Of a DNA stretch of 51,665 bases, positions 1 to 42,442 are shown piece after piece. How positions within the stretch are numbered: the stretch's first letter is position 1; each line of letters starts with the position of its first letter. Source of the stretch: Candidatus Nanohalarchaeota archaeon (GTDB lineage Archaea > Nanohalarchaeota > Nanosalinia > Nanosalinales > Nanoanaerosalinaceae); assembly GCA_022729255.1 (NCBI GenBank), contig JALDAG010000003.1, forward strand, positions 1-51,665. Direction: 5' to 3'. The notes under the pieces are model-generated. The model made no database searches. It had not been told where the DNA came from and saw only the letters and a list, made by a program, of their open reading frames with translations. The position numbers were made by a program, and so were the translations under genes.

Positions 1-2685
1 CCAGTAGATAGCAACCGATCTGGCTCACGCCGATCTAAACCCAGCTCACGATCCGTTTTAATGGGTGAACACCCCCACCCTTGGCCGCGGCTGCACGGCC
101 AGGATACGGAGAGCCGACATCGAAGTAACAAGCCTGCGGGTCGATATGGGCTCGCGCCGCAGACAATCCAGTTATCCCCGGAGTACCTTTTCTGTCATAC
201 CAGAGCCTCAACCAAGAGGCTACTAGGGTTCGCTAAGCCTCGCTTTCGCGTCAGGACTCAGAAATGTAGTGAGTCCTGTCAGGCCCTCTTTTGCCTTTGT
301 GCTCTACGCCCGAGTTCTGACCGGGCTGAGAGGACCTTTGGACCCGTCTGATTTGTTATCAGACGGATGCCGCCCCAGCTAAACCGCCCAACTATCACTG
401 TCCCTTTTCAGGTTAGACGTACGGGCTTCGGAGGGTAGTGTCCCATGGTTGGCTCCATCACACCTAGTGGCGCGACTTCGAAGCCTCCTACCTACGCTTC
501 ACACCAAAGCCCATACATCAATAAAAGCCTGCGGTAAAGGTTCACAGGGTCTTCGCTTCCCACTGGATGTCACCGGCCTTTGCACCGGTATGGCGCGGTT
601 CACCGAGCCTTGGCTTGGGACAGTAGATACCTCGTTACTCCATTCGTGCGGGCCAACAGTTGATTGGCAAGGGATTACGCTACCTTAAGACGGTCATAGT
701 TACCGCCGCCGTTTACGAGCCCTTCTTCCTCTTGTACAAGGTAATCAGGTACTCGCACTGGGCAGGAGTCGCCGGCTGTACAAACCTTTTCAGGCTAGCA
801 GCCAGCTACGTTTTTATTAAACAGTCGGGCATCTCTAGTCATTGCAACCCGTCCTTTCACAAAGACGGGCACCCCATCTCCAAAAGTTACGGGGCTAATT
901 TGCCGAATTCCCTAAGCCAAGTATTACTCGACACCCCTTAGTCTATTCAACCAGGGCACCTGTGCTGGATCTGGGTACGAACAAGGACTTAAGACTCCTT
1001 TTCACGGGTTCTAGGAATCAGCTAAACCCAGGATTTGTTCCTAGGCTGTTCTGGCATTCAAAAGGTTCTCGCCATTACGGCGCTCCCCTTCCTTAAACCA
1101 TTAAACAGAGTATGCCTCTGCTTAGCTTATCCCAAAACGTCAGAGTCAACTGAACGTGTCCTAACGGTACCGGAATATTAACCGGTTTCCCATTCGTCAT
1201 CCTCGATTAAGGAATGACTTAGGATCGACTAACCCCCAGCTGACGAACATTGCTGGGGAACCCTTGCCCTTGCGGGGGTGAGGATTCGAACCTCACTTTT
1301 GTTGGTACTGCCGACAGGATTATCGTTCCTACACGGTCCATTCGACCTCACAGCCGAATTTCCATCCATGCAGGACGCCTCCCTACCGGTCGTGGAATGC
1401 TACCACGACCCCAGGGTCTCGGTGGCTAGTTTGAGCCCCGTCCATTTACGGCGTCCCAGACCTCAACGGGTGAGCTTTTACGCTTTCTTTAAAGGGTAGC
1501 TGCTTCTAAGCTAACCTCCCCGCTGTCTAAGATCCGGGACAACCTTCAGGTACACTTAACTAGCACTTAGGGACCTTAACCCTAGTCTGGGTTGTTTCCC
1601 TCTAGGAGCAGCAGCTTACCCGCTACCCCTCACTCCCTGAGTTTTCAGCATTAGCAAGTTCGGAGTTTGACAACGGAAGCAGCTCAAAGAGCTGGATTTC
1701 CATAATCAGTAGCTCTACCTCACTAATTGCCTCGTCAGGGGCTGCACTTCGGTGCATTTCGGGAGGAACCAGCGATTACCGGTTTCGATTGGCATTTCAC
1801 CGCTATTCACAGTTCACACGAGCGCTTGCTCACAGCAACGCTTTGGGCCTCCATGCAGCTTTCGCTACATTTCACCCGGACCATGAATAGATCAACCGGC
1901 TTCGGATAGTATTTCAGTGACTTCCCGCACTTTCGTACGGCGTCCCTCACAATGTTGCGGACATGTTGCTTTCGCTTCGGTTGCAAAGCTAGACACTTTT
2001 TAACCTCGCCACAGAAATACACTCCCTGCCCCGTTTTTCAAAACGGAAGTCAGAACCCTGCTCCGCTCCTCTCGTACTACAACCTCTCAGTTGATTCCTT
2101 CAAGGAACATCGGCGCTTTAAGGCTCTGACCAGCCTAAGACCAGGCAGGTTCAAGCTCTTTTAACCTCCTTTTTAGGGATTCTTTTCAACTTTCGCTCAC
2201 GCTACTGGTACGCTATCGGACTCAAGACGTATTTAGAGTTGGAAGTCGGTGCCTCCCAAATTCACAAGGGATTTCCAACCCCTGCTATTCTGGAAACCGT
2301 CACATCTTTGAAACGTTTACCTACGGGACTATCACCCTCTGAAGTGTTCCGTTCCAGAAAACTTCGGTTAGGTCTCAAAGACTAAAAGACGGACCAAAAA
2401 ACCACATATTCCTTCACTCACGTGAAGGTATTCAGTTTGCTCTGAACCGCTTTCGATCGCCCCTACTAACGGTATCTCGGTTGATTTCTTTTCCTGCTGG
2501 TACTAAGATGTTTCAGTTCCCAGCGTTCCCGTTTCCAGAGGAAACACGTGTAAAACACGTAGGAAGTCCTATTAGGAAACCTTGGGCTCCAAGGCTACAT
2601 GCGCCTCACCCAAGATTTTCACAGCTTGTCACGTCCTTCATCAGCGTCTTGAGCCGAGCTATCCTCTACCTGGATTAAACGAACC
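1..2685 (-). rRNA. rrl: 23S rRNA (3' part outside window; 5' end approximate)
   Basis: Reverse complement has LSU landmarks: GATGTCGGCTC, GGGATAAC, GTAACTATGACCGTCTTAAGGTAGC, and a 5' GGATAGCTCGGCTCAAGACGCTGATGAAGGACGTG. Confidence 0.98.
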
Positions 2686-2889
2686 TCTCAGTCCGTGTGA
2701 TCTCCAACAATCAGTACTCGACACCACTTTTTACAGTGGGACAAAGATGTACAGGACCTACTTTGTACCGCTCCAGGAAAACCTGGAACAACAAAAAAAA
2801 TTTACGGTTGCACCTGAATTGATGCAGGATATGTTAAAAAACACACCCTTGAATAACCTTCCAGTCTTTTTAGGACAGGAAAGCTTTAA

Positions 2890-2963
2890 TGGACCCGCAG
2901 GGATTTGAACCCTGGGCCTTCCCCTTGCAAGGGGGACGTTCTGCCAGACTGAACTACGGGCCC
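2890..2963 (-). tRNA. tRNA-Ala(TGC) in the 16S-23S spacer, CCA not encoded
   Basis: GGGCCCG...CGGGTCCA cloverleaf, anticodon loop with TGC, T-loop TTCAAAT. Confidence 0.97.
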
Positions 2964-2993
2964 AAAACTATAAACAGAAAACTCCCGTAGCTC

Positions 2994-4627
2994 AACTGAC
3001 GATAGATGTATTGGTGTTTTACCAGCCCAGTCCGAGTAGTTTGGAGGTGATCCAGCCGCTGGTTCCCCAACGGCTACCTTGTTATGACTTAGCCCCCCTT
3101 GCTAATTCCAGATTTGATCCTCTCAGAGAGAGAACCTCACCTGGGACTAACTCGGGTGACTTGACAGGCGGTGTGTACAAGGAGCAGGGACGTATTCGCC
3201 GCTAGATAATGACTAGCGACTACTAGCGATTTCGCCTTCATGAGGCTGAGTTACAAGCCTCAATCCGAACTACGACCGGTTTTAGGGGTTTAGCTTCTCC
3301 TCTCGGAGTCGCATCCCTTTGTACCGGCCATTGTAGGCCGCGTGTATCCCAGAGCGTTCGGGCCATACTGACCTACCGTCGCCCGTTCCTTCCTCTGATT
3401 TATCACCAGCGGTCTCCTATGAGTGCCGGACCTCCGGAGAGGACCGTAGCAACATAGGACACGGGTCTCGCTCGTTACCTCACTTAAGAGGACACCTCAC
3501 GGCACGAGCTGACGGCGGCCATGCAACACCTCTCAGCTCCTCAGGTAAGCTCTTCAAGCTGACCATCATTGTGCTGTCGGCTCTGGTAGGGTTTGCTGCG
3601 TTGGATCTAATTAAACCGCAGCCCCCACCGCTTGTGGTGCTCCCCCGTCAATTCCTTTAAGTTTTAGCCTTGCGACCGTACTCCCCAGGCGGTCCACTTA
3701 ACGGTTTTCCTTCGGCACAAGGAATCCTCGGAAGATTCCTTACATCAAGTGGACATCGTTAACGGCCAGGACTACAGGGGTATCTAATCCCCTTTGCTCC
3801 CCTGGCTTTCGTCCCTCACCGTCGGATCCGTAATCGCCGAGCGCTTTCGCCACCGGCGCTCCTCCTGGAATTTTAGGATTTCACCCCTACTCCAGGAATA
3901 GCCTCGACGCCTTCCGGTCCCAAGCCCCATAGTATCCACCGCACTTCTGATAGTTAAGCTACCAGATTTCACAGCGGACTTATGAAGCCGGCTACGGACG
4001 CTTTAAGCCCAATAATCGTGGCCACCACTCGCGGTGCTGCTATTACCACGGCGGCTGGCAGCAGTCTTGCCCACCACTTGTTGCTGAACCTCCTTAAAGT
4101 TCAGGAAAGCTTCCCGCTTTGTTTACGAGAAGCACTTGGAGTCCCCCTATCGCGCTTTCACGCATTGTAAAGGTTTCGTGCCTGCTGCATCCCGTAGGAT
4201 CCGTGTTCTTGTCTCAGAACACGACTGACGGCTCGCGCTCTCACGCCCGCTACTGATTATCGGCACACCGAGAAGTTACCTCAGCGTATACCTAATCAGC
4301 CGCAGTCCCATCCTAAGGCGCCGGAACATTTCAAGAAGACACCATTCCAGGCAATTCTTCCCTATCCAGTATTAGCCTCAGTTTCCCGAGGTTGTCCTGG
4401 TCCTTAGGGCAGGTTGACTACGTGTTACTCAGCTTTCCGCTCCGATCTAAATCGGTCAGCTAGCATGGCTAAATCGGACTCCAATAGCAGTGGCCTCCGG
4501 CAGGATCAACCGGAATTACAGTCAATAAAGACTGTCGCACGCTCACAAAAGAGTGCTAAACCAAATCTCCCTCCAAAAAGAGAGATAAAGAAACTAGACT
4601 GGTAAAATATCACCACTATCGCCAATT
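2994..4627 (-). other. 16S processing stem with bulge-helix-bulge motif (arms ~2994-3034 and ~4591-4627)
   Basis: 5' arm GATAGT-GGTG-ATA-TTTTACCAGTCTAGTTT pairs with 3' arm GGACTGGGCTGGTAAAA-CACC-AAT-AC..TATC, giving a 4-bp helix between two 3-nt bulges. Confidence 0.8.
3043..4516 (-). rRNA. rrs: 16S rRNA
   Basis: Starts ATTCCGGTTGATCCTGCCGGA, ends GGATCACCTCC; ~1474 nt; no intron seen. Confidence 0.99.
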
Positions 4628-40943: not shown

Positions 40944-41480
40944 TTACAACGGCTGCTCGATAACCTGTTTTAATGTCTTAACAGTGATAAAACGGTATTT
41001 TTGTAGGTCTTCTACAGTGAACTGAAACTCCTCCGAGGTCTCCGCCAAACAACAATCTTTGACAAGAGTCACCGAATAACCCCTGTTGTATGCGGATTCC
41101 ACGCATTCCCTTACACCGGCATTTATGGCTAATCCTGCTATGTAGAGGTGCTCAACACTCATATCTATGAAGAAATCGTCGACATATGTTTCGATGAAAG
41201 GATCCCACCCCTTTCTTCCAAAAATTTCTATGCCTTCTTCCATAGGTATCTCATCGATTATATCGGATCTCAGGTTGTTTCTGGGAAATACATCCTCTTC
41301 TTCGTTGTCACCGTACTTCTTCGTATATGCTATAGGCGACTGATTTTTGATTGCTTCATGAACCAAAGTCTTGGCTTTTTTTTCCACTATACTGGTTCTT
41401 CCAAGGTAATAAACCGATGATTCGTCCTTCCACTCGTTCTGAAAATCTACCAAAAGCAAACCTGAATTTGAGGCCCACAT
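40944..41480 (-). CDS. Isochorismatase-family hydrolase (atypical active site)
   Basis: LLLVDFQNEW, IAG...V...AYNRGY.V.LVKDC. Confidence 0.85.
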   Translation of the reverse strand: MWASNSGLLLVDFQNEWKDESSVYYLGRTSIVEKKAKTLVHEAIKNQSPIAYTKKYGDNEEEDVFPRNNLRSDIIDEIPMEEGIEIFGRKGWDPFIETYVDDFFIDMSVEHLYIAGLAINAGVRECVESAYNRGYSVTLVKDCCLAETSEEFQFTVEDLQKYRFITVKTLKQVIEQPL

Positions 41481-41550
41481 AGAAAATAGGTTTGTGGCGG
41501 AGTATAATAATATTTTACCCTCCTGAACGGAACAAAATAAACAAATGTAA

Positions 41551-41780
41551 ACCGCTTAAGGAAGCCTCCAAAACCTTTTTAAAGGTGTGGAAGGTACTTT
41601 ATGGTAGATTTAAGATGGTTAATACTGAGGCCACGTTTTGCGGAACTAGAAGCTTTCTGAAGCTGTTCCATAGAGCCTCAGCTATTTTCACACATTATAT
41701 CCTGAATATTGTGTGGGGATAGATAAAAAGTAGCTCGTCTTTAACCTTCTGGGACTAAACCCGGAACGGAAGAAGGCGGT
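41551..41780 (+). ncRNA. Candidate structured RNA, unknown class
   Basis: Closing helix ACCGCTT/AGGCGGT encloses at least six nested helices, several with G-U pairs that work only on the + strand. Confidence 0.6.
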
Positions 41781-41809
41781 CGAAAAATTTCTAAATAATT
41801 CACCCTAAA

Positions 41810-41938
41810 ACTGCTCTGGTGTAACTTTTCCCGTGCCTGTACGCCTCCACTTCTTATGCGGGAAAGGAAGATCCTTTTCAGGGTTCTTGGTAACACACCG
41901 GGTTTCTGGAGATACCTGTTCGAGCCAGGTGGGCAGTA
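41810..41938 (+). ncRNA. tRNA-like RNA without anticodon loop, with 64-nt D-loop insertion
   Basis: Acceptor ACTGCTC/GGGCAGT+A, D stem GTGT/ACAC, G18G19, T arm ACCTG-TTCGAGC-CAGGT. Confidence 0.75.
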
Positions 41939-41957
41939 TCCCGAGGAGGGAACAAAA

Positions 41958-42140
41958 ATGCAAGGAACAAAAGTTTTGGAAACAAGTATGCCAAATAAAA
42001 CTCAAAACAGCGGTCAAAGCGTTCGATACGAATGCGAGGTATGTGGAAAAACCACAACGTTTAAGAACGTACTTAAAGAAGACAATAGATCTATTGTGTT
42101 GTGCAAAAAGCATTTTAGAAGAAGCGTTTTAGATCTTTAA
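41958..42140 (+). CDS. Small putative zinc-finger protein (CxxC...CxxH), 60 aa
   Basis: GGAGG SD 8 nt before ATG; YECEVCG...VLCKKH. Confidence 0.65.
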   Translation: MQGTKVLETSMPNKTQNSGQSVRYECEVCGKTTTFKNVLKEDNRSIVLCKKHFRRSVLDL

Positions 42141-42160
42141 GTTTGATGACCAGAGCAGAA

Positions 42161-42194
42161 TTGATAGAGATATAATCTCTGTCAACAACTTTTT
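42161..42194 (+). terminator. Hairpin plus oligo-T
   Basis: TTGATAGAGA-TATAA-TCTCTGTCAA followed by CAACTTTTT. Confidence 0.5.
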
Positions 42195-42285
42195 GACTAG
42201 AGCAAGGATCTTGAAGCCAGAGCTTTAATCCTTATTTGAACAGTTTGGAAGTATGGAAGAGAACATAAACTTTTTGACAACTTCA

Positions 42286-42360
42286 TAGCGGGGAGTGGAT
42301 TTGAACCACCGACCTCCGGGTTATGAGCCCGACGAGCACTCCTGGCTGCTCCACCCCGCT
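42286..42360 (-). tRNA. Initiator tRNA-Met(CAT), CCA not encoded
   Basis: A1-U72 pair, three G-C pairs closing the anticodon stem, loop CTCATAA. Confidence 0.97.
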
Positions 42361-42442
42361 ATCTTTTGAATTTCTTGGTAAAGGTTTTAAAGTTAGTGTT
42401 GGTGCGGACAAATTTATATGGAGAGAAGACCAATTTTTTCGT

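Follow-up and report, generated by a model that had tools for sequence, protein, structure and literature searches.

An interval of 804 nt in the DNA of a Candidatus Nanohalarchaeota archaeon holds a tRNA-like element that, as judged by comparative sequence analysis, is real, conserved with compensatory changes, and not a tRNA. The interval is part of the window, by which we mean the whole analyzed stretch of 51,665 nt, identical to contig C20, one of the 56 contigs that make up an archaeal genome of 0.95 Mb. The element is situated between two genes for micro-proteins, and the whole arrangement is, to judge from its order in related genomes, a mini-operon specific to one family, present in Ca. 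Nanoanaerosalina and in genera related to it. In what we consider the best reading, to which we give about an even chance, the element would act as punctuation in the manner of the known t-elements, being cut by RNase P and tRNase Z. The parts of this module, including its first small open reading frame (ORF), termed sORF1, are the following:

41576..41583, plus strand: TATA-like box TTTTTAAA; the sORF1 ATG follows 31 nt downstream
41615..41722, plus strand: sORF1, 35 codons plus TAG (MVNTEATFCGTRSFLKLFHRASAIFTHYILNIVWG)
41625-31 / 41675-81 and 41683-94 / 41710-21, plus strand: hairpins H1 and H2 over sORF1 (RNAalifold)
41729..41785, plus strand: non-coding hairpin H3 with its flanks AGUAG (41729-33) and CGAAA (41781-85)
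41735-42 / 41772-79 and 41745-53 / 41760-69, plus strand: outer and inner stems of H3, with loop ACUAAA
41810..41938, plus strand: tRNA-like element, 129 nt, with acceptor, D and T arms and no anticodon arm
41945..41949, plus strand: Shine-Dalgarno sequence GGAGG, at distances of 6 nt from the discriminator and 8 nt from the ATG
41958..42140, plus strand: gene for a zinc-finger-like protein (CxxC...CxxH) of 60 aa, MQGTKVLETSMPNKTQNSGQSVRYECEVCGKTTTFKNVLKEDNRSIVLCKKHFRRSVLDL
42141..42284, plus strand: 3' tail with repeats GACCAGAGC (42148-56), GACTAGAGC (42195-203) and GCCAGAGC (42216-23)
42187-97 and 42268-78, plus strand: two exact copies of AACTTTTTGAC in the tail, with a T5 run in each

Within the tRNA-like element the individual parts are assigned as follows:

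41810-16 / 41931-37, plus strand: acceptor stem of 7 bp, ACUGCUC/GGGCAGU, then U8 and G9
41819-22 / 41893-96, plus strand: D stem, GUGU with ACAC; GG at 41889-90, with GG-N-A in the D loop
41825-34 / 41858-67, plus strand: hairpin of a 66-nt insertion in the D loop; its loop contains CCUCC (41844-48)
41898-41909, plus strand: mini-hairpin of 4 bp at the position of the anticodon arm
41914-18 / 41926-30, plus strand: T arm ACCUG-UUCGAGC-CAGGU, with T loop UUCGAGC at 41919-25
41938, plus strand: discriminator A

The element thus has the fold by which t-elements are recognized, a cloverleaf with an acceptor stem of 7 bp, a T arm and a T loop of the GTTCRA type. As evidenced by the comparison of seven genomes, the elbow is kept in all of them, with U8, a GG-N(1-2)-A before the 3' strand of the D stem and a UUC(G/A)A T loop that occurs as UUCGAGC, UUCGACC or UUCAAAU. 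The insertion in the D loop and the arm at the anticodon position vary freely between genera, the latter extending from a hairpin of 12-14 nt up to an arm of 42-46 nt, and CCUCC is found in the loop of the insertion hairpin in 5/7 genomes. An anticodon arm with a 7-nt loop, the mark of tRNA identity, is absent in 7/7 genomes. Neither a tRNA nor a tmRNA was called here by ARAGORN at default settings, and the Rfam tRNA family RF00005 gave no match to the element even at E values up to 10. The features of a tmRNA are likewise missing: U-A or C-G takes the place of G3:U70, and the two ORFs are found outside the element.

A covariance model (R1) was built from four sequences of the same genus with a structure assigned by eye and was searched in 70 Nanohaloarchaeota species genomes, a set that served for both the order-level and the phylum-level search. 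Matches were obtained in 7/70 genomes from three genera of one family. The four genomes of the genus scored 111-179 bits, and those of two further genera of the same family scored 53 bits (G007), 40 bits (G008) and, for G004, 31 bits in the locus search and 14.5 bits in the genome search. Outside the family scores did not exceed 19.4 bits; three of these matches that were inspected (in G045, G023 and G026) have no T arm or lack its pairs, five further ones reached 10.9-12.5 bits, and nothing convincing was found outside the family among 60 genomes. Pattern scans of genome and metagenome contigs (at least 201 loci) returned the module, among the matches listed, in three Ca. Nanoanaerosalina records only.

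In the model-fitted alignment of the seven sequences standard pairs occupy 97.8% of the 180 pair cells, and 11 of the 30 pairs have changed on both sides, a number that was equalled by 0/500 shuffles. When the partners were slid against each other as a control, pairing fell to 41-52%. The acceptor stem keeps 7/7 pairs, four of them changed on both sides, so that sequences as different as CCCGCCU/AGGCGGG in G007 and GCCGUCC/GGACGGU in G008 retain pairing. The T arm, with 5/5 pairs kept, covaries between genera. Note that a sister-lineage contig (DNA run X3, with a loose end at 41786) shows the start of the element as ...AACTGCCCT, with C6 for U6, whereby the U6-G67 wobble would become a C-G pair; in the four DNA sequencing runs at the locus we see only co-occurring sister lineages.

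The position of the element is fixed between the ORFs. The order of promoter, sORF1, H3, tRNA-like element, Shine-Dalgarno sequence and zinc-finger gene is identical in seven genomes, while sORF1, hairpin and zinc-finger gene are co-linear in nine genomes of four genera, the element being present in 7/9. An initial annotation of the window had described four co-oriented elements, a structured RNA, a tRNA mimic, a zinc-finger peptide and an antisense tail, with gaps of 29, 19 and 8 nt. These boundaries (tract end at 41780, mimic at 41810-41938, ORF at 41958-42140 and tail start at 42149) were reproduced exactly from the sequence and its ORFs. The test set in advance for this proposal, that the elements be linked in relatives, came out in its favor, since the module order is kept within the family and the parts are neither unlinked nor absent.

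In all seven genomes that carry the element, GGAGG(U) follows 4-6 nt past the discriminator, with the variant GUAGAGGGG in G002, and the three genomes of the other two element-bearing genera have (U)UC(C)GGAGGU upstream of the zinc-finger ATG. The GGAGG is complementary to the 3' end of 16S rRNA (...GGAUCACCUCC). In a fourth genus, g4, which is represented by G006 and G009, the element was not found, its in-place scores being at most 10.7 bits with filters off. Its place is taken by a spacer of 109-116 nt with 40-44% GC, T5-T6 runs and A/T boxes, such as a TATAAA at -55 in G009, and the sequences before the ATG are GGGAGGUGA in G006 and AGAGGUGA in G009. In G008, in contrast, the interval from H3 to the zinc-finger ATG is free of A/T runs of 5 or longer and of T runs of 4 or longer, which argues for one transcript. 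From the T-run spacer of g4 versus the run-free interval of G008 we infer that the cistrons are separated by transcription signals in one solution and by RNA processing in the other, and this contrast is what one would expect if punctuation and a terminator with promoter had replaced one another.

Following the reading of the element as punctuation, a TATA-type promoter at 41576-83 would drive a single transcript that comprises the ORF for a 35-aa peptide (41615-41722), a conserved 3' hairpin and then the 129-nt tRNA-like element, which would have retained only those parts of a tRNA that are read by processing enzymes, namely acceptor stem, T arm and the D/T-loop elbow. The Shine-Dalgarno sequence would follow 6 nt past the element, and then the gene for the 60-aa zinc-finger protein. 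The cuts, placed 5' of A41810 for RNase P and 3' of A41938 for tRNase Z, would separate two small mRNAs, the peptide mRNA ending shortly past its hairpin and the zinc-finger mRNA starting just before its ribosome-binding site, and would release a free tRNA-like RNA able to receive CCA. Genes for the processing machinery are present in the genome, with RNase P RNA at 160.9 bits, tRNase Z at 340 bits and the CCA-adding enzyme at 425 bits. We favor punctuation because acceptor stem, T arm and elbow are kept, because all three enzymes are encoded and because t-elements provide a precedent. The idea of one precursor punctuated by tRNA-processing enzymes had already been put forward in the initial annotation, and with the run-free interval of G008 and the encoded enzymes it stays the best reading. 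What the sequences show directly is the anatomy, the conservation, the covariation, the coding status of both ORFs and the genes for the enzymes, whereas a common transcript, its cleavage and any biological role for the two proteins are features that we infer.

The TATA-like box at 41576-83 is the probable promoter of the module, as its surrounding block AACCTTTTTAAAGG is invariant in four genomes and similar T/A boxes (CTTTTTAAAT, ATATTTAAAGG, GTATTTAAAGC, GCTTTTAAAGG and GGTTTTTAAGG) are found in other genera at comparable upstream distances. The frame of sORF1 is open in 9/9 genomes over 31-48 codons and ends at one common alignment position in TAG, TAA or TGA. In a MAFFT alignment of seven genomes (A7), from which the gap and frame counts were taken, gap events were multiples of three in 5/5 cases within sORF1 versus 0/7 past its stop, the other five frames were closed in 34/35 combinations of genome and frame, and the ratio of non-synonymous to synonymous polymorphism (pN/pS) was 0.29-0.62. 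This ORF of 35 codons was overlooked by gene callers. At the same time the tract 41520-41790 folds at -81 kcal/mol with a z score of -4.11 (0/200 shuffles were as good), and several amino-acid-changing substitutions in H1 and H2 preserve pairing. Coding and structure therefore probably coexist here, given a strong fold with pairing that is kept through substitutions on one side and frame evidence that favors coding on the other. The last codons of sORF1, AATATTGTGTGGGGATA (41704-41720), are identical in 4/4 genomes of the genus, including the wobble positions; they form the 3' strand of H2, which runs into the stop codon, and their invariance at every position points to constraint on the peptide and on the RNA alike. 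Of the structured RNA in the initial annotation, the strong fold and its hairpins stand, but the tract is for the most part a conserved ORF of 31-48 codons with one non-coding hairpin, and for this reason the designation of the whole as an RNA-based system does not hold in its pure form.

This non-coding hairpin, H3, has 12 predicted consensus pairs in an alignment of nine genomes, six of them changed on both sides, and gaps in its region are not multiples of three. Its flank AGTAG is invariant in 9/9 genomes, as is CGAA, with A as the next base in eight and G in one. Such AGUAG and CGAA(A/G) blocks are also present at loci L002-L004, L221, L222, L225, L239 and L240. The consensus of the loop-E or bulged-G (sarcin-ricin-like) motif is AGUA opposite GAA beside a Watson-Crick pair, and we take the AGUAG/CGAA framing of H3 to resemble this protein-binding module. 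A B recognition element (BRE)/TATA-like sequence had been proposed at 41781-97 as a promoter for the second unit. The CGAAA block within it looks instead like a hairpin flank, kept in 9/9 genomes, because its distance to the element varies, from 29 nt here to 17-18 nt in the other genera, and because GC-rich sequence comes next in G008. Archaeal TATA boxes are centered near -26, and with a TATA box at 41785-97 this geometry would place the start of transcription inside the acceptor stem.

The zinc-finger peptide can be considered a real gene starting at 41958, as had been proposed. Across the genus its ORF has a pN/pS of 0.26-0.47, indicative of coding sequence under purifying selection, and variable columns distribute over the three codon positions as 19/15/40. 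Homologues of 48-60 aa are present in nine genomes, those of the seven element-bearing ones having 50-60 aa, and a profile of these seven proteins led to the two further homologues in g4 (G006 and G009, 48 aa). The zinc ligands follow the pattern CxxC...CxxH, or CxxC...CxxC in G007. Profile matches outside the family were weak, occurring in 16 genomes with E values of 0.0019-0.00995 and lying, among the rows listed, mostly in long open frames. No family in Pfam or NCBIfam scored over its cut-off for the protein. The C2H2 scores are below threshold, 18.0 bits against a cut-off of 25.2 for PF00096 and 18.4 against 21.2 for PF12874, and the best E values of this type, 0.0027 for zf-met and 0.004 for zf-C2H2, also belong to matches under the cut-offs. 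An AlphaFold (AF2) model reached a predicted local distance difference test score (pLDDT) of 79, but a Foldseek search of this model against the PDB gave no match with E below 2. The ESM Atlas holds only small unnamed clusters for the protein, and a search of 5.8 billion proteins returned two entries. HMMER found 61 matches among 1.84 billion representatives, including the family entries P0001, P0002, P0009, P0010 and P0011, where the assignment to the family rests on seven retrieved sequences and the two top matches. The non-family matches show 2-20 matched stretches each, and the four that were inspected are repeat proteins of the C2H2 type. Public gene calls start this ORF further upstream, yielding 94 aa (window 41856-42140), or 88 aa in G002 (P0001, P0002). 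The extension overlaps the tRNA-like element and, with a 1-nt indel in G002, is not conserved in frame, so that the public start is probably mis-annotated.

In the 3' tail, GAYYAGAG-like copies occur 3-5 times in each of 4/4 genomes of the genus, and by eye no such repeat is present behind the gene in G007, G008 or G004. The stretch 42149-58 is complementary without mismatch to 10 nt in the 5' strand of the element (41811-20); we estimate that about 0.3 such complements would be expected by chance in 820 nt. For the antisense tail of the initial annotation the complement thus exists, but the GACYAGAG motif is confined to this genus. A reading of the tail as a C/D-box RNA was dismissed, because G001 does not retain the TGATGA found at 42145. 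Transcription of the zinc-finger gene may stop at the two AACTTTTTGAC copies.

With regard to the setting of the locus, the interval is flanked by two features on the opposite strand:

40944-41480, minus strand: isochorismatase-family gene (PF00857, E 9.5e-20)
42285-42361, minus strand: tRNA-Met CAT

It had been stated that the elements lie between a divergent gene and a convergent tRNA, and this was confirmed with the two features above, no mobility gene being present between them. The synteny with pdh and initiator tRNA suggested for relatives extends to 3/4 genomes of the genus, but G003 lacks the adjacent tRNA and the flanks are different elsewhere. While the initiator tRNA-Met follows the module in the genome studied here (G000), a NucS gene takes this position in G007, G008 and G004, starting in G007 22 nt past the zinc-finger stop. 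Genes for NucS/EndoMS lie at 547-1326 (minus) of L221, 358-1137 (minus) of L222 and 1937-2749 (plus) of L225, and in G000 NucS is found on a separate contig (C36, 25218-25994). No Rfam family was assigned to any part of the interval, either at the gathering cut-off or at E values up to 10, and the sole other matches within 41400-42400 had E values of 7 and 8.6. The RNase P RNA and the signal recognition particle (SRP) RNA of the genome are encoded on other contigs. An rRNA operon occupies 1-4516 of the window on the minus strand, with 16S rRNA at 3042-4516, a tRNA-Ala UGC in the spacer (2889-2964) and 23S rRNA at 1-2690, cut by the window end. With introns allowed, ARAGORN finds 41 tRNAs for all 20 amino acids in the whole genome. 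Many of them have long predicted introns or spans (294 nt in Thr-CGU, 203 nt in Met, 199 nt in Thr-UGU), and a few calls, such as those of a Tyr-AUA and of a second Cys, look doubtful. According to a 2022 preprint, the genus Ca. Nanoanaerosalina belongs to the Nanohaloarchaeota family Ca. Nanoanaerosalinaceae; the locus is not mentioned in the available portions of that paper.

Several observations weigh against processing as the function of the element. The locus is known here from DNA alone, the covariation counts come from an alignment that was fitted to the model, and the D stem is invariant in all sequences, which renders covariation uninformative about it. The folding energy of the element is ordinary (z -0.34, with 74/200 shuffles as good), and the single-sequence minimum-energy fold pairs the center differently. 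The A/T-rich stretch 41781-97 just upstream may be a second promoter in the genus. Genus g4 manages without the element, and the covarying insertion hairpin with its CCUCC loop in 5/7 genomes hints at more than a bare cutting signal needs. Conserved extra hairpins, among them the one with the CCUCC loop, speak for the main rival explanation, in which the element stays uncut and forms a cis-acting structured 5' leader of the zinc-finger mRNA. Such a leader could be a site for the zinc-finger protein, leading to autoregulation, a site for an elbow-binding factor, or a shield against 5' exonucleases beside the Shine-Dalgarno sequence. The spacing of 4-6 nt between element and ribosome-binding site and the presence of the zinc-finger gene beside the element, both in 7/7 genomes, fit this view, and the zinc knuckle of the protein does resemble C2H2 fingers, if with sub-cut-off scores for zf-met and zf-C2H2. 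Nevertheless, g4 has the protein without the element, and an element that keeps exactly the determinants for RNase P and tRNase Z is expected to be cut, so that we regard an uncut leader as unlikely. Masking of the Shine-Dalgarno sequence by the CCUCC loop was rejected, as the energies of its duplex with GGAGG were no better than those of shuffled controls in any of seven genomes (0.13-0.93 of shuffles as good). A speculative extension of the punctuation model, which we rate as rather improbable, is a small ribonucleoprotein circuit with the released CCA-tagged RNA or the AGUAG/CGAAA hairpin as the ligand of the zinc-finger protein. The zinc-finger mRNA would be translatable only after RNase P and tRNase Z have acted, and its output would therefore report the tRNA-processing capacity of the cell.

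The remaining alternatives concern single parts of the module. That the tract 41600-41780 is a non-coding structured RNA with an incidental open frame would agree with its strong fold, with amino-acid-altering changes in H1 and H2 (E/A to G/V; F/S/P/S) that keep pairing, and with the 3' strand of H2, in which no codon position varies within the genus. It is improbable in view of a frame open in 9/9 genomes with three different stop codons at one site, of ORF length changes that are without exception multiples of three, of the closure of the other frames, and of an ASA motif common to genera g1 and g4. In the fuller model of the initial annotation, base pairing between the tail and the element's 5' strand would circularize the RNA, mask the element or guide its processing. 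The perfect 10-nt complement lends itself to this proposal, as do the ACYAGAG core, which is complementary to CUCUGGU of the element if G-U pairs are allowed and occurs 3-5 times in 4/4 tails of the genus, and the rarity of GACYAGAGC, found only six times in the 0.95-Mb genome with two of the copies here. The chance expectation for such a complement is not negligible, however, and the 5' strand of the element is invariant in the genus, which makes a covariation test of the pairing impossible. No comparable repeat is seen in G007, where the next gene follows 22 nt past the stop, nor in G008 or G004, and the repeats, which adjoin T runs, could instead mark a terminator or a protein-binding site, leaving tail pairing very improbable. 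We consider it scarcely credible that the element is a real tRNA gene disrupted by several introns or by splitting, or a tRNA pseudogene in decay. The start of its D arm, UGGUGUA, does resemble tRNA-Pro, Asp, Glu and Gln of the genome, and long introns are predicted for many of the tRNAs, but the anticodon arm and its 7-nt loop are missing throughout, ARAGORN and RF00005 do not recognize the element, tRNAs for all 20 amino acids are encoded elsewhere, and the compensatory changes across genera exclude neutral decay.

If punctuation by a tRNA-like element is correct, enzymes of tRNA processing would also shape mRNAs in the reduced genomes of DPANN archaea, in a protein operon backed by covariation; natural archaeal t-elements are known mainly from Haloferax 5S rRNA. 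Should the circuit apply as well, archaea would have a tRNA-shaped sensor or autoregulator made of two micro-proteins and two structured RNAs. The analysis also corrects the annotation, with a zinc-finger ORF over-extended to 94 or 88 aa and a missed ORF of 35 codons, and the genera with the element versus the genus with a T-run spacer constitute a natural comparison of what the element contributes. Genetic work in halophiles could use the element as a compact processing cassette, a purpose for which the Haloferax t-element is already employed.

A literature search yielded no paper on Nanohaloarchaeota together with tRNA-like elements, and several known systems lend themselves to comparison. 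In MALAT1 and MEN-beta, recognition of the mascRNA-type tRNA-like fold by RNase P and tRNase Z frees a small CCA-tagged RNA, and the cut defines the end of its partner. These systems are eukaryotic, with a non-coding host transcript and no downstream ORF, and Rfam gave no match to a mascRNA-type family in the interval. The tRNA-like domain of tmRNA shares with the element an acceptor stem, a T arm, a reduced D region, the lack of an anticodon arm and an association with a short ORF. However, tmRNA is bacterial, has its tag ORF inside the domain and carries G3:U70, whereas here the ORFs are outside, pair 3:70 is U-A and ARAGORN calls no tmRNA. Haloarchaea have small zinc-finger micro-proteins of the CPxCG or C2H2-like type, which resemble the protein of 48-60 aa in being single zinc-knuckle proteins of a halophile, although they share no sequence family with it. 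The closest counterparts are the t-elements, which in Haloferax and in plant mitochondria are described as being cut by RNase P and tRNase Z (PMC4326828, PMC1920247). In Haloferax a tRNA-like structure upstream of 5S rRNA is cut by tRNase Z and has been reused as a processing cassette (PMC4326828, PMC3296008), and those of plant mitochondria sit at mRNA ends (PMC1920247). According to the accessible portions of these reports, the cuts define mRNA or rRNA ends, sometimes with a stable RNA to which C or CCA is added (PMC4326828, PMC3296008, PMC1920247). Like them, the element described here is a non-canonical cloverleaf with acceptor stem and T arm, predicted to reside within a longer transcript beside the end of another RNA. 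Unlike them, it is known from its sequence, lies between two conserved micro-protein genes, carries covarying insertion hairpins, and is conserved together with its neighbors as one module across three genera.

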